Positions 38,091 through 42,070 of a stretch of 64,000 bases of DNA are shown here, in pieces. Location of the stretch: NCBI GenBank assembly GCA_965116885.1, contig OZ220741.1:2144001-2208000 (forward strand), written 5' to 3'. The notes below the pieces were generated by a model. It was not told the DNA's origin and made no database searches. It saw nothing but the letters and a program-made list of their open reading frames with translations. Within the stretch, counting starts at the first letter, position 1, and each line of letters opens with the position of its first letter. Source of the DNA: Candidatus Latescibacterota bacterium (GTDB lineage Bacteria > Latescibacterota > UBA2968). Both the position numbers and the translations under genes were made by a program.

Positions 38091-38786
38091 ATGTCTGTTA
38101 ATCGCCGACGTTTTCTATGTCAGTCCGCTGCATTGGGTGCGGCGGTTTTTGTGACACCAGGGGTTTTTGCCGAGCAACTGACGCTTACGCCCCGGCAGAC
38201 CGAGGGTCCGTTTTATCCGGATAAGATGCCGCTGGATGTCGATAATGATCTCGTGATAATCAACGATGCGATTACGCCCGCAGTGGGAGAGATTACGCAT
38301 TTGACCGGGCGTGTTCTGGATGTGAATGCCAATCCCATAAAGAATGCCATAGTGGAGATCTGGCAGGTCGATAGCAATGGGGTTTATATCCATACCGAGG
38401 CTCCGAGGCGCGACAGGCGAGACGCGAATTTTCAGGGTTTTGGGCGTTTTGAGACGGGATCTACGGGTGAGTACCGCTTTCGGACGATTAAGCCCGTGCG
38501 GTACGGGGGGTCGCGAACCGCTCATATTCATTTTGCGATTAATAAAAATGGGCACCGGCTTTTGACGTCGCAGATGTACGTGAAAGACAATCCGGACAAT
38601 GAATGGGATTCTATTTTCAGAAATACGGGTCGCGCGTCTCACGATTTGTTGTCCGTGCCGTTTAAGCCATTGCCCGGGTCTGAGGTTGGCGAATTGACGG
38701 CAAATTTTGATGTTGTGATTGGCGAGTCGCCCGAAGACCGGGAAAATGACCGAGGGCGACGAGGCCGACGGCGCGGGTGGTGGTAA
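38091..38786 (+). CDS. Intradiol ring-cleavage dioxygenase family protein with Tat signal
   Basis: NRRRFL, TEGPFYP, VEIWQ.D..G.Y, FRTIKP..Y, AHIH. Confidence 0.9.
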   Translation: MSVNRRRFLCQSAALGAAVFVTPGVFAEQLTLTPRQTEGPFYPDKMPLDVDNDLVIINDAITPAVGEITHLTGRVLDVNANPIKNAIVEIWQVDSNGVYIHTEAPRRDRRDANFQGFGRFETGSTGEYRFRTIKPVRYGGSRTAHIHFAINKNGHRLLTSQMYVKDNPDNEWDSIFRNTGRASHDLLSVPFKPLPGSEVGELTANFDVVIGESPEDRENDRGRRGRRRGWW

Positions 38787-38801
38787 AAAGATAGGATATG
38801 C

Positions 38802-38830
38802 TTGACGGAATGATCATTTCTGGCTATTCT
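38802..38830 (+). promoter_or_regulatory. Sigma70-type promoter for the three-gene cassette
   Basis: TTGACG-17 nt-TATTCT. Confidence 0.6.
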
Positions 38831-38891
38831 TTTTTGCACTGATGGTCCATTTCGACGACTGTGGTAAAAGTTCTGGCTAAGGATTTGCTGA

Positions 38892-39293
38892 ATGCATAGA
38901 ACACCCGAGATTGTTTTCCGGGCAATGAAAGAGGATTTTGATGGTAAACCTCTCGTGGAAAGGTCGGCAAGGGCATTAGGAGTTCGCATAAGTGGACCAT
39001 CTGTAGATATCTCAATTGATGAGAAAGGCGAAGTGCTTCCTAAGACGGGAGGGATGTCTGTAACGCCAGATTCTCTTCATCTGCTGCCGTATATAAGAAA
39101 GCCCAAAGCTTTGGGTGGTGAAGGACGCGACCCGGTTTTTTCTTTTCAAGTGATCAATTTGCCTTCTATTTTAGCTCTACGTAGAGATACATCAAGGCAC
39201 GCGCTTGTTGAACCATCGAAGCCCTGTTTGTTCGAGGAATATGAGCAAAATTTACATGGCACCAGAGAAGATTGGGTGAAATGTCATGAGTGA
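38892..39293 (+). CDS. Hypothetical protein, possible Tse2-like ADP-ribosyltransferase-fold toxin
   Basis: VFR10, GGMS56V, H103ALVEP spacing fits an Arg-Ser-His ART-like triad. Confidence 0.55.
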   Translation: MHRTPEIVFRAMKEDFDGKPLVERSARALGVRISGPSVDISIDEKGEVLPKTGGMSVTPDSLHLLPYIRKPKALGGEGRDPVFSFQVINLPSILALRRDTSRHALVEPSKPCLFEEYEQNLHGTREDWVKCHE

Positions 39294-39564
39294 AGCTTTC
39301 GAGCGATATCGTTCTTTAGAACGCGATCTCATTTATATCCGCTGGCAACATGCAGGATTTGAATCTGATGAAGAAGAGACTATTCTGGATGTCATGGAAG
39401 AAGTTTGGTATGAATTGAGGGAAAAAGAACAGCAGTTACTGTACAGTGAAGGGACGAAGTCCCTAATCCGCGATACCATACCACATTATTGTTTGATCGA
39501 TGGAGACATTTGGAGGGAGTCCCATTCCGGCAAATTGATTCGTGATCTTGGAGGTGTAGCCTAA
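39286..39564 (+). CDS. Small acidic helical protein, possible antitoxin/immunity protein
   Basis: 92 aa, ESDEEETILDVMEEVWYEL; 8-nt overlap with upstream ORF. Confidence 0.5.
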   Translation: MSEAFERYRSLERDLIYIRWQHAGFESDEEETILDVMEEVWYELREKEQQLLYSEGTKSLIRDTIPHYCLIDGDIWRESHSGKLIRDLGGVA

Positions 39565-40298
39565 TGTATCTTACTGCACAACGGATTCTGCGGATAAAGG
39601 ACAAGAAGGGGGGGATCAATGTTTTTCTGTATCAACACGGTAAGCATGATTTGCCTCCAAATGCACAATTTAGCAACGTTGACTGGATCACCAATCAGTA
39701 TCCTGGAAAACTTATCGCGGAATCTGTAGATTTAGTGCCAGGAGGCAATGCCGTTCTGAGCTTTATCGATATTGTTGGCAGGGAGGGGCTCGACAAAGAG
39801 TGCATACAGTATTTCCTCGACCAAATGGAATGCAGTGTTAAGGATGTACATACTCCCATTACCGAATCTACTTCGAATCTCGCCGTTAAATTTGGAATTA
39901 CATTGGGATTAAAAGGACAGGAGATAAGAGAGTATAAAGCCCTCAAGGAAAGGGCGATGCATCTGTTGGAGTCGCCCGAGCCTCCCAGGTGGCGCACTGG
40001 GAACCCGTGGATAGTGATTTATCGCAATATTTCTCATAATCAGGAAACATTTAGCTTATCATCAGAAACCGCCGAGAAACTCAAACAGATACATAACGGG
40101 TCTTGGGACTCTTCGAGGGTTTCAATAGATCGACACACAAAGCATAATGTCGAACTCATACACGGTGACCTGATACAGCACATCGCACCGGTCTTAACCG
40201 ATTTAACGCTTGAACAAATTGCTATACAGGGTGGATTAATACTTTGCGATTCTCTGACCCAAAAAAAAATTAAATGGCCTGAACTGAGGGAAATATAG
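39564..40298 (+). CDS. Hypothetical protein
   Basis: 244-aa ORF, GGAGG RBS, TAATG coupling to upstream gene; no motif recognised. Confidence 0.7.
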   Translation: MYLTAQRILRIKDKKGGINVFLYQHGKHDLPPNAQFSNVDWITNQYPGKLIAESVDLVPGGNAVLSFIDIVGREGLDKECIQYFLDQMECSVKDVHTPITESTSNLAVKFGITLGLKGQEIREYKALKERAMHLLESPEPPRWRTGNPWIVIYRNISHNQETFSLSSETAEKLKQIHNGSWDSSRVSIDRHTKHNVELIHGDLIQHIAPVLTDLTLEQIAIQGGLILCDSLTQKKIKWPELREI

Positions 40299-40323
40299 TT
40301 CAGGTAGAAATAAGGGGTATTTT

Positions 40324-40674
40324 TTGCGACGTTTTACTCACATTCTAATTATTGCATTGACGCTCATGGGAACGGTTGCGCCCTGTCTGTGCTGGGCGCA
40401 TCAGGCTTCGATGCCAGAGTGTCATGCTGCAGCAGAGTTGAAAGATTGCTGTTGTAGCAAAGAGGCGGCGGTCGATCAGCAGATGCCGGCGAGCGATCTG
40501 GCTGTTTTGCCGGGTGAATGGCAAAATCCAAAGTTGAATTTGACTTGTGTGACGTTGTATCCCTCGGTCGTTCTTTCCCAGAGTGATTTCCTTCCTTTTA
40601 TGGTGGATGATCGCCAGAGAGCTTTGCGATCACCGCCCGATCTGTATCTTCTCCACGCTGCATTTCTCATCTGA
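40324..40674 (+). CDS. Cys/His-rich exported hypothetical protein preceding the metal efflux operon
   Basis: Hydrophobic N-terminus, CLC, CH, CCC, C-terminal RSPP..YLLH..FLI. Confidence 0.6.
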   Translation: MRRFTHILIIALTLMGTVAPCLCWAHQASMPECHAAAELKDCCCSKEAAVDQQMPASDLAVLPGEWQNPKLNLTCVTLYPSVVLSQSDFLPFMVDDRQRALRSPPDLYLLHAAFLI

Positions 40675-40810
40675 TTTTTCTTTCCTGTGCTTGAATGGCG
40701 TTTGGGGATAGGTGTGTACAAAATATTCCCAAATGGTCGTTTTTTTCGCCGCATGTTTTGCGGACTTTTTCCTTTTTAAATACTAAATATAGATTCTCTG
40801 GAGGTGGCTT

Positions 40811-42070
40811 GTGTATGCTATCCGAGCCATGATCGGACTATGCCTCATGGGTATATCTATTTTACCTGTGCGGGCAGATGAACTGGAGTTGGATGCGTTG
40901 ATTCAGGAGGCTTTGGAAAATAATCCCAATTTGTCGGTTTTACGGGCGCGGTTGGCTGCTTTTGAAGCGAAAATTCCGCAGGCGGGGGCATTGGAAGATC
41001 CGTCTTTTCGTTTTGAGGTGAGCAATGTGCCGTTGAGCGATTTCAATTTGAGTAGTTCGCCGATGAGTGGGAATCAATTTGTGATCAGTCAGAAGTTTTC
41101 TTTGCCGGGGAAACAGCGGGCGCGCGAGCGATCAGCAGAGTTTGCTTCAGATTCTGTTGCATGGCTGTTGCGAGATCGAGAACTGGCAATTGCCAATGCG
41201 GTCAAGCAACCTTTTTTTGACCTGGCTTATGCGACCCGTGCTATTGCAATTATGGAAAAGAATCGGGTGTTGTTGCAAGATCTGGTTCGCATTGCCCGCA
41301 CGAAATACGCCGTTGGAAAAGGGTTGCAACAGGATGTGTTGAAAGCTCAGGTTTCGCTGTCGGCACTGGATACGGAGTTGATTGCTCTGCGGGCTAAAAA
41401 ACAATTGGCAGAGGCGCGTTTGAATCTGGTGTTGAACCGGTCTCCGCAAAGTCCTCTGGACGCGCCGCCAGATACTATTGGTCTTTCGGGTGTGCCGTTG
41501 ACGGTTGATGTCTTGCAAGCGCAAGCCGATGAGGCACATCCATCCCTGAAAGCTATGGATCAATCGATTTTGATGTGGCAAGCAGAGGTTGAGGTTGCGC
41601 GAAGAAATCTCTGGCCGGATATGACGGTGAGTTTGGGATATCGCCAGCGCGTGTTTGCGGCCAATGATCCGGTGAAAGGAAGCGATTTTATATCTGTTGG
41701 CGTCGGCATTCCATTGCCCGTATTTGGCGGACGCAAACAACGCCAGCAGATTGCAGAAGCGCGGGCCAATATGCGAGAGGTTGAAGCTCAAAAGGCCGCT
41801 GAACGCGAGCAGATTCACTACGAGATTCAGCGTCTAATTATTGAGGTCGGGCAACACCGGGAAAGTGCCGAGTTGTTTCGCACTGCGATGTTGCCCCAGG
41901 CAGAGCAGTCGCTGGCGTCGGCTTTGTCGGGATATCGGGTGGATAAGGTGGATTTTTTGACGTTGTTGAATAATCAGATGACGCTGTTGAATTTTGAGAT
42001 CGCACATTATCGACATGTAATTGAGCATGAAAAACGGGTGGCAGATCTGGCGGCGGCGGTGGGGCGTTAG
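40811..42070 (+). CDS. TolC-family outer membrane factor (CusC-like)
   Basis: Signal peptide, ALENNP, QAGALEDP, Y..GK...DVLKAQ, Y....DFL.LL; operon context. Confidence 0.9.
   Translation: MYAIRAMIGLCLMGISILPVRADELELDALIQEALENNPNLSVLRARLAAFEAKIPQAGALEDPSFRFEVSNVPLSDFNLSSSPMSGNQFVISQKFSLPGKQRARERSAEFASDSVAWLLRDRELAIANAVKQPFFDLAYATRAIAIMEKNRVLLQDLVRIARTKYAVGKGLQQDVLKAQVSLSALDTELIALRAKKQLAEARLNLVLNRSPQSPLDAPPDTIGLSGVPLTVDVLQAQADEAHPSLKAMDQSILMWQAEVEVARRNLWPDMTVSLGYRQRVFAANDPVKGSDFISVGVGIPLPVFGGRKQRQQIAEARANMREVEAQKAAEREQIHYEIQRLIIEVGQHRESAELFRTAMLPQAEQSLASALSGYRVDKVDFLTLLNNQMTLLNFEIAHYRHVIEHEKRVADLAAAVGR

Follow-up and report, generated by a model that had tools for sequence, protein, structure and literature searches.

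A three-gene toxin-antitoxin-like cassette of Latescibacterota with a Tse2-family toxin candidate and a putative non-SecB guardian protein

What is the role of a third gene, devoid of any recognisable motif, that follows a predicted toxin and its small acidic partner? The question is raised by a cassette of three open reading frames (ORFs) in a 64,000-nucleotide (nt) stretch of the genome of a Candidatus Latescibacterota bacterium (GenBank assembly GCA_965116885.1, contig OZ220741.1, positions 2,144,001 to 2,208,000), hereafter termed the window. The cassette lies on a closed single-contig chromosome (5.56 Mb, 98.36% complete) and includes: (i) ORF1 (38892-39293, + strand; 133 amino acids, aa), a putative toxin of the Tse2-family ADP-ribosyltransferase (ART)-like type, (ii) ORF2 (39286-39564, + strand; 92 aa), a putative antitoxin, and (iii) ORF3 (39564-40298, + strand; 244 aa), the third component. 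ORF1 and ORF2 overlap by 8 nt (ATGAGTGA) and ORF2 passes into ORF3 through TAATG, both read directly from the sequence; the tight coupling of three co-directional genes noted in an earlier sequence-only reading is thus real, as is their lower G+C content (0.439 vs 0.528 and 0.516 in the 5-kb flanks). The explanation favoured here, at a probability of about 0.55, is that of a tripartite toxin-antitoxin-'guardian' module operating in the manner of the toxin-antitoxin-chaperone (TAC) systems, with a third protein from a new non-SecB family.

ORF3, its partners and the antitoxin tail

ORF3 is composed of an N-domain (residues 1-140; 39564-39983, + strand), which is the conserved core and always adjoins tail-bearing antitoxins, and a C-domain (residues 141-244; 39984-40298, + strand), which is an optional module. 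Among 26 ORF1 loci from other genomes, 21 have an ORF2-like gene followed immediately by an ORF3-family gene, and the three genes thus co-occur beyond the window. The proposal of a three-component cassette (toxin, acidic partner and third gene) is supported as far as computation reaches; however, the third gene is not bound to a Tse2-like toxin. Myxococcota and Latescibacterota have cassettes that close with ORF3 or its N-domain and differ in their first two genes. These pairs are a Tse2-like with an ORF2-like protein, a CHAP-like with a helical protein, a HEPN-like with a 140-aa protein, a GNAT-like with a 248-aa protein, and a member of a 170-aa family with a TPR-like protein; the Pfam hints behind these names all lie below the cut-off. 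Several further pairs also precede ORF3, and one of the middle proteins carries an HTH_3 domain above the Pfam cut-off. As judged from its neighbours, ORF3 is a promiscuous partner of many unrelated putative toxin/antitoxin pairs.

The middle genes have a common ending. Of 63 unique middle genes upstream of ORF3, 54 end in Ala and 51 in Ala or Val followed by Ala ([AV]A). Their cores cluster into 15 families, a conservative count because the largest cluster merges two unrelated cores; 11 of the families mostly end in Ala and nine mostly in [AV]A. As background, an Ala end is found in 6.7% of the host's long ORFs and an [AV]A end in 0.8%, while the 104 other pairs of the host genome that are coupled through TAATG or TGATG include nine upstream genes that end in Ala and none that ends in [AV]A. 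The last antitoxin codon falls past the Shine-Dalgarno site, in the spacer ahead of the ORF3 start.

The 170-aa first-gene family, which shares 75-85% identity across loci, allows cassettes with and without ORF3 to be compared: ORF3 is present in six loci and absent from 17 loci that have a readable second gene. All six antitoxins that precede ORF3 have a C-terminal extension of ~30 residues ending in VA, and the extension of this TPR-like antitoxin aligns with, and is homologous to, the tail of the unrelated ORF2 family. The extension is found in none of seven TPR-like antitoxins without ORF3, and none of the 17 loci without ORF3 has a second gene ending in [AV]A. In DNA comparisons of three cassette pairs with different toxin types (ART-type and 170-aa-type), the sequences cease to be similar across the toxin and antitoxin-head region; similarity resumes within the second gene (at about residue 73 of 95, 63 of 95 and 79 of 107) and continues through ORF3; two of the three pairs have matching upstream flanks and thus occupy the same chromosomal site. 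A quick tree of ORF3 N-domains, made by a rapid method only, has these two cassette types interleaved within the Latescibacterota clade. Recombination at one chromosomal site swaps the toxin and the antitoxin core and keeps the tail and ORF3 together.

ORF2 itself is built in parts. Residues 1-60 (39286-39465, + strand) form an acidic head with 16 Asp and Glu residues that reads as a helical hairpin, and residues 61-92 with the stop codon (39466-39564, + strand) comprise a variable linker followed by the portable C-terminal tail, which ends in GVA-COOH. The description of ORF2 as small and acidic is borne out by 21 Asp and Glu against 11 Lys and Arg among its 92 residues (isoelectric point, pI, 4.63). 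ORF2-like genes follow ORF1 in loci of Latescibacterota, Lentisphaerota, Myxococcota and Acidobacteriota, and the head is conserved alongside ORF1 across phyla. An alignment of the family (A3) displays the same plan: some 60 conserved residues of the head come first, then the variable linker and the tail, with Ala as the last residue in 26 of 26 sequences. ORF2 matches no Pfam family at E<=1, and no Tsi2 chain of the PDB is retrieved by its A3 profile at E<=10; thus, ORF2 stands only as an acidic analogue of the Tse2 partner Tsi2, with no homology detectable by these searches.

The end of the ORF2 tail, [A/V]-A-COOH, resembles the transfer-messenger RNA (tmRNA) degradation tag of the host itself (ADDNTYAMAA), and ClpP is present in the host genome. 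The tail of ORF2 is read here as an 'addiction' element whose end resembles ssrA. More generally, the tail of the middle genes would be a protein-level signal, which at the level of sequence resembles a C-terminal ClpXP-type degradation signal. A ubiquitin-like GG signal was considered for the LGGVA tail and dropped, as relatives have REVA, KEVA or TEVA at this position. In two acidobacterial loci (L017:1033-2363 and L018:5944-7274), ORF1 and an ORF2-like gene without an Ala-Ala end are followed by an unrelated 209-223-aa protein instead of ORF3.

The ORF3 family comprises 340 cluster representatives (50% identity) at E<=1e-3 in a full phmmer scan, mostly of ~240 aa and some of ~140 aa. Members are found in 44 of the 168 genomes of the phylum and in 37 of 401 Myxococcota sampled. 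What they have in common is the N-domain; most Myxococcota forms lack the C-domain, which elsewhere is fused to other N-terminal regions. For example, it ends 396-493-aa proteins that have an unknown domain of ~300 aa (L062-L067, e.g., L066:2569-4047:-), and one fusion of this group has a HicB-like antitoxin domain at its start, for which Pfam gives E 5e-11 and a score above the cut-off. Five Latescibacterota genomes have a second full-length paralogue of ORF3 (L058-L061, e.g., L059:2965-3708:-); it comes after a 125-aa protein ending in IR[END]AA and has no adjacent Tse2-like gene. In two genomes (L068:2405-3076:- and L069:2665-3417:-), the middle protein of the second-paralogue cassette is fused directly to the C-domain, as if the N-domain had been deleted.

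The absence of a recognisable motif from the third gene is confirmed, in that ORF3 has no match in Pfam, PADLOC or NCBIfam at E<=1. Across 85 members of the family, Pfam gives no consistent match and none to SecB, and the 120 relatives listed carry no precomputed Pfam domain and are named 'hypothetical protein' at most. An hhalign comparison of the ORF3 alignment (A2) to two SecB sequences gives a probability of 0.1%, and the ORF3 profile finds only chance-level matches among PDB sequences. The AlphaFold model of ORF3 is confident (predicted local distance difference test, pLDDT, 92.8; predicted template modelling score, pTM, 0.84) and has two alpha/beta domains, at residues 1-140 and ~149-244. 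Foldseek against the PDB returns a best match of E 2e-3 with a template modelling (TM) score < 0.2 and none at E<=1e-3, a VIA-wide fold search reaches a best Z of 4.4, the viral structures of BFVD give a best E of 1.2e-2, and the ESM Atlas has no usable match for ORF3 as a whole or for residues 1-140; the lack of a clear match does not in itself establish a new fold. SecB is absent among the fold matches listed, a point that is not decisive by itself. ORF3 was also considered as an immunity protein of the SUKH type and as an adaptor like SspB; both ideas were dropped for want of a family or fold match.

The Tse2-family toxin candidate and its variable site

ORF1 matches the Pfam family ADPRTs_Tse2 (PF18648) with an E value of 1.7e-4 along almost the entire model (positions 8-136 of 137). 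A word-indexed search finds 30 relatives, of which 29 are 131-133 aa and one is a 79-aa fragment; a precomputed PF18648 label is attached to 14 of them, and all 27 that were aligned match the family at E<=0.1 (best 4.6e-8). The three residues singled out in the sequence-only reading, R10, S56 (in GGMS) and H103, are invariant both in this alignment of 27 close relatives (A1) and in one of 21 diverse sequences from several phyla (A4). The full set of A4 invariants is R10, S56, D99, H103, P108, T124 and W128, and E107 is nearly invariant. A profile search with A4, limited to proteins of 68-247 aa, returns 285 proteins, all small and none named.

When the A4 profile is compared to PDB sequences, the Tse2 chain 5ako_C ranks second of 177,635. 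The match is weak and falls into two pieces (tGGmSv with TGGTSVF, and rHalvePak with THYTIMPAK), which pair S56 of GGMS with the TS of Tse2 GGTS and H103 with the His of THYTIMP; the Arg lies outside the alignment. The profile of close relatives (A1) does not find Tse2 among the PDB sequences. A 2026 preprint predicts a Tse2 pocket formed by R14, T79, S80 and H122 and describes T79A/S80A as inactive; S56 and H103 correspond to residues of this pocket by alignment. Thus, the suggestion of a Tse2-like protein, originally made from motif spacing, gains a family match and aligned GGxS and H..P motifs. By these sequence relationships ORF1 is assigned to the Tse2 ADP-ribosyltransferase-like family, although its own score stays below the curated cut-off of PF18648, and is predicted to be a toxin.

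ORF1 looks intracellular. The closed genome has no match to TssC, Hcp or TssB (PF05943, PF05638 and PF05591), although each search found its E. coli control, and delivery by a type VI secretion system (T6SS), as for Tse2, is therefore unlikely; the view of ORF1 as a stand-alone toxin agrees with this result. Two distant ORF1 homologues are encoded beside large Rhs/YD-repeat proteins (L020:1073-2980 and L026:99-4616). Each has a different small downstream gene, neither has an ORF2-like or ORF3-like neighbour, and both look like orphan polymorphic-toxin modules.

The chromosomal site is variable, and the cassette occupies it as a mobile insert. A search of positions 38100-41900 of the window in 21 genomes of the genus finds both flanks, a dioxygenase-like gene and an operon of a 116-aa gene with CzcC/CusB-like genes, in all 21. 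Between the flanks are the Tse2-type three-gene cassette (eight genomes, one with a truncated ORF3), a three-gene cassette in which the first gene belongs to the different 170-aa family (three genomes), a two-gene version of this 170-aa cassette without ORF3 (two genomes), or a 264-nt remnant (one genome). In the other seven genomes the site is empty with the flanks 34-72 nt apart, in agreement with the proposed insertion between unrelated genes. The insert, polymorphic in its presence and absence, holds three genes in ~1.49 kb at ~38837-40322 (+ strand), with approximate boundaries drawn by aligning three empty sites with the two junctions of the window. At occupied sites, the insert provides a new ribosome-binding region for the downstream 116-aa gene.

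A sigma-70-like element, TTGACG-17-TATTCT (38802-38830, + strand; 9 of 12 consensus matches), lies outside the insert. Sites of this type are no commoner in the area than in shuffled sequence (3 vs 3.9 +/- 1.9), and the element also occurs in cassette-free sites of three genus genomes, directly upstream of the 116-aa gene. Because it stands before the efflux operon in empty sites, it is a resident promoter-like element of that operon, behind which the cassette was inserted. The element is thus real, but the claim that it is the cassette's own promoter is not upheld.

Several observations concern the site and its expression. A 220-nt contig from RNA-library run X16 matches 38838-39050 with zero differences and covers the beginning of the insert together with the 5' 159 nt of ORF1; its aligned part sets in where the insert begins on the left, immediately after the -10-like hexamer, although contigs cannot prove transcription or a transcript start. 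The contigs of four RNA-library runs give no cover over 39051-40149, from which neither absence nor level of transcription can be read. On the + strand, no terminator-like site is found between ORF3 and the 116-aa gene (40324-40674, + strand), a Cys-rich ORF with a signal-like N-terminus and a CxxxxxxxxxCCC stretch that starts the CzcC-like/CusB-like operon. In one single-contig assembly of the genus, an occupied site lies at the first bases (G073:C1:5-3262) and an empty site at the last (G073:C1:5888717-5891062); the contig ends may overlap and capture two alleles of one population. A Tse2-type cassette of the genus (L003:6682-7170, G085:C1:4977928-4978410) has intact ORF1 and ORF2, while stop codons reduce its ORF3 to the N-domain (143 aa). 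The genome of the window also has, outside the window, a partial, stop-interrupted copy of the 170-aa toxin family (G000:C1:1169811-1170029; E 3.6e-8).

Explanations for the three-gene cassette

Of the favoured explanation, the analysis itself shows how the genes are arranged, to which family ORF1 is assigned, that the insert is mobile, that the tail goes with ORF3 and that toxin and antitoxin cores are swapped as modules. The working of the module is modelled on TAC and CmdTAC. By this analogy, ORF1 would be a cytoplasmic, ART-like toxin of the Tse2 family that is neutralised by the acidic helical head of ORF2. ORF2 would further carry a disordered linker and a portable tail of ~30 residues, with an end like the host tmRNA degradation tag, that renders the antitoxin sensitive to proteolysis. 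ORF3, translationally coupled to ORF2 via TAATG, may bind this tail through its N-domain, such that the antitoxin stays folded and shielded from ClpXP-type proteolysis. If a phage protein or stress, for example, titrated ORF3 away or inactivated it, loss of the antitoxin would follow and the toxin would arrest the cell, and the cassette may thus serve in anti-phage defence. A complex prediction of ORF3 (A2) with ORF2 (A3) returned a score of 0.00, which is no answer and counts neither for nor against binding.

A number of points weigh against this explanation. The tail residues at -3 and -4 overlap the Shine-Dalgarno site of ORF3, and the constraint on the tail is thus partly one of DNA; four to six of the 15 partner families have no Ala-Ala end and are still followed by ORF3, including two HTH-type (helix-turn-helix) partners; and the loci come from related genomes, such that the counts are not of independent events. 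The ORF2 tail of the window ends in GVA and not AA; ssrA-type tags ending in -LVA also act as degradation tags. Fold searches find no resemblance of the ORF3 model to any known chaperone or peptide-binding fold. For ORF1, the PF18648 score of 22.7 bits is under the curated cut-off of 26.6, the match of A4 to 5ako_C is not significant (E 0.53), and the AlphaFold2 model from the 27-sequence alignment is poor (mean pLDDT 43.3). The site is flanked by a dioxygenase gene and a metal-efflux operon and is not a defence island. The searches made of phage, plasmid and IMG/VR collections find no relative of the cassette: tblastn with ORF3 (a single Latescibacterota sequence as query) has no match in the plasmid and phage collections, and the ORF1 profile A1 gives 12 pattern matches on viral contigs, none of them a true relative.

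The association of the tail with ORF3 would fit any protein that recognises the tail, and ORF3 may instead act as a sensor or adaptor that brings the antitoxin with its tail to a protease, in the manner of SspB, or otherwise triggers its loss, as the activating arm of abortive infection. The optional C-domain, which recurs elsewhere and once with a HicB-like antitoxin N-terminus, could be the signal-receiving module of such a sensor. This role is nonetheless unlikely. ORF3 is coupled 1:1 with the antitoxin and made constitutively, and a constitutive adaptor would make the cassette self-toxic; no SspB or other adaptor fold is among the matches listed, and in the only studied analogues, as the cited accounts describe them, the third protein protects the antitoxin. 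At the other extreme, ORF3 may have no business with the tail and be an unrelated passenger or the transcriptional regulator of the operon, with the shared tail explained by common ancestry of the 3' end of the second gene and ORF3, inherited as a single recombination block. Breakpoints inside the second gene alone would carry the tail along with ORF3, and the antitoxin head has no recognisable DNA-binding domain, such that another regulator could be needed. However, such an origin leaves unexplained both the convergence of unrelated antitoxins of other phyla on P-R-x-x-A-A-COOH before ORF3 (at least five partner families in Myxococcota) and the total lack of the extension in two-gene versions. 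ORF3 is also not basic (pI 6.55) and matches no HTH family in Pfam. This alternative is judged very improbable.

A different reading of the whole locus is that of an interbacterial effector-immunity system of the polymorphic-toxin type, in which ORF1 is exported, ORF2 confers immunity and ORF3 is a secretion adaptor or a second immunity protein. PF18648 is named for a T6SS effector, the two distant homologues at L020 and L026 adjoin large Rhs/YD-repeat proteins, and the cassette genes diverge faster than their surroundings (54-77% vs 93-95% identity in the flanks; L003, L006 and L016). By contrast, ORF1 lacks a trafficking domain at its N-terminus, all relatives found for it are small, the closed genome lacks TssB, TssC and Hcp, and the Rhs-linked homologues have no ORF2-like or ORF3-like neighbour. 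The HTH_3 domains of some cassette partners and the HicB-like N-terminus of one C-domain protein are typical features of toxin-antitoxin (TA) antitoxins, and the ssrA-like tail points to turnover in the cytoplasm. Export of ORF1 in an effector-immunity role is, in consequence, considered quite unlikely.

If the guardian role of ORF3 is accepted, a wider proposal follows, which is advanced tentatively and at somewhat less than even odds. The ORF3 family may be a second, evolutionarily independent class of 'addiction chaperone', a non-SecB guardian that binds the tail and that, together with the portable tail, gives ordinary two-gene TA pairs a third part and sensor control. Such three-part systems would occur widely in phyla that are mostly poor in SecB, Latescibacterota and Myxococcota among them, and may serve as phage sensors. 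A SecB-like chaperone has so far been the defining feature of TAC systems, the anti-phage CmdTAC and HigBAC included; a second, unrelated family doing the same job would make the antitoxin tail plus guardian a general, convergent design. If true, hundreds of unannotated cassettes (340 ORF3 clusters) would join the candidate defence systems and a new portable tail/guardian pair would be available for engineering. Small cytoplasmic toxins of the Tse2 family with a cognate antitoxin would likewise provide a convenient and tractable route to the substrate of Tse2, the target and mechanism of which are described as unknown in a 2025 review (PMC12133291).

Comparison with known systems

Tse2-Tsi2 of P. 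aeruginosa (PDB 5AKO) is one of the closest known systems: ORF1 falls in the same Pfam family as Tse2 (with a score below the cut-off), the GGxS and His motifs align, and the partner is small, acidic and helical. It differs as a T6SS effector/immunity pair, whereas the cassette has a third gene, an ORF2 with no detectable relationship to Tsi2 and a host without T6SS or Hcp. Panacea (PanA) is similar in the combination of one conserved module with many unrelated toxin domains (PMC8832971); however, Panacea as described there is the antitoxin of two-gene systems, while the promiscuous element of the ORF3 cassettes is a third protein with a short antitoxin tail. The titles and abstracts listed by the literature searches, with subscription journals and supplements outside their reach, mention no TA module of the Tse2 family and no TAC system without SecB.

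The classical TAC systems are HigBA, MqsRA or HicAB modules with a SecB-TA chaperone and a ChAD extension (PMC5105189, PMC6377645). According to PMC5105189, one chaperone family serves several TA families via the portable C-terminal ChAD, which is lacking in two-gene relatives. The ORF3 cassettes are alike in having a single third-component family that accompanies several unrelated TA families, three coupled co-directional genes, and a portable C-terminal extension of the antitoxin that is missing from two-gene relatives. They differ in the toxin families and in a third component that belongs to another family and has an optional second domain. SecB itself is not found in the host genome and is found in two of 61 sampled Myxococcota genomes; the SecB-lacking host genome and the Myxococcota (59 of 61 without) represent the two groups in which ORF3 cassettes are found most often.

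CmdTAC of E. coli ECOR22 is described as composed of an ART toxin (CmdT), an antitoxin (CmdA) and a SecB-like chaperone (CmdC) (PMC11618068). In the antitoxin, two helices at the N-terminus are reported to precede a long unstructured C-terminus; this ends in LAA, a ClpXP signal described as 'similar to other TAC antitoxins' (PMC11618068). The SecB-like chaperone of TAC systems recognises both the antitoxin extension and a phage structural protein, and in CmdTAC a phage capsid protein displaces the antitoxin from the chaperone and thereby frees the toxin (PMC11618068; 10.1101/2024.02.24.581848). The cassette of the window shares with CmdTAC the gene order of toxin, antitoxin and third protein, a putative ART-like toxin, and a putative antitoxin with an N-terminal helical pair and a long C-terminus with an Ala-Ala type of end. 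By contrast, CmdT is likened to exotoxin A and has a catalytic Tyr in the source cited, while ORF1 is of the Tse2 family with a predicted R/S/H pocket, and the third protein of the cassette is not SecB-like (no Pfam match; hhalign 0.1%). ORF1, ORF2 and ORF3 have no match at E<=1 in PADLOC-DB v2.0.0, a release in which the presence of CmdTAC models was not confirmed. Since the SecB-like chaperone is the defining feature of TAC and is not found in the cassette, the locus is classified as TAC-like in its proposed working rather than as a member of the TAC family.

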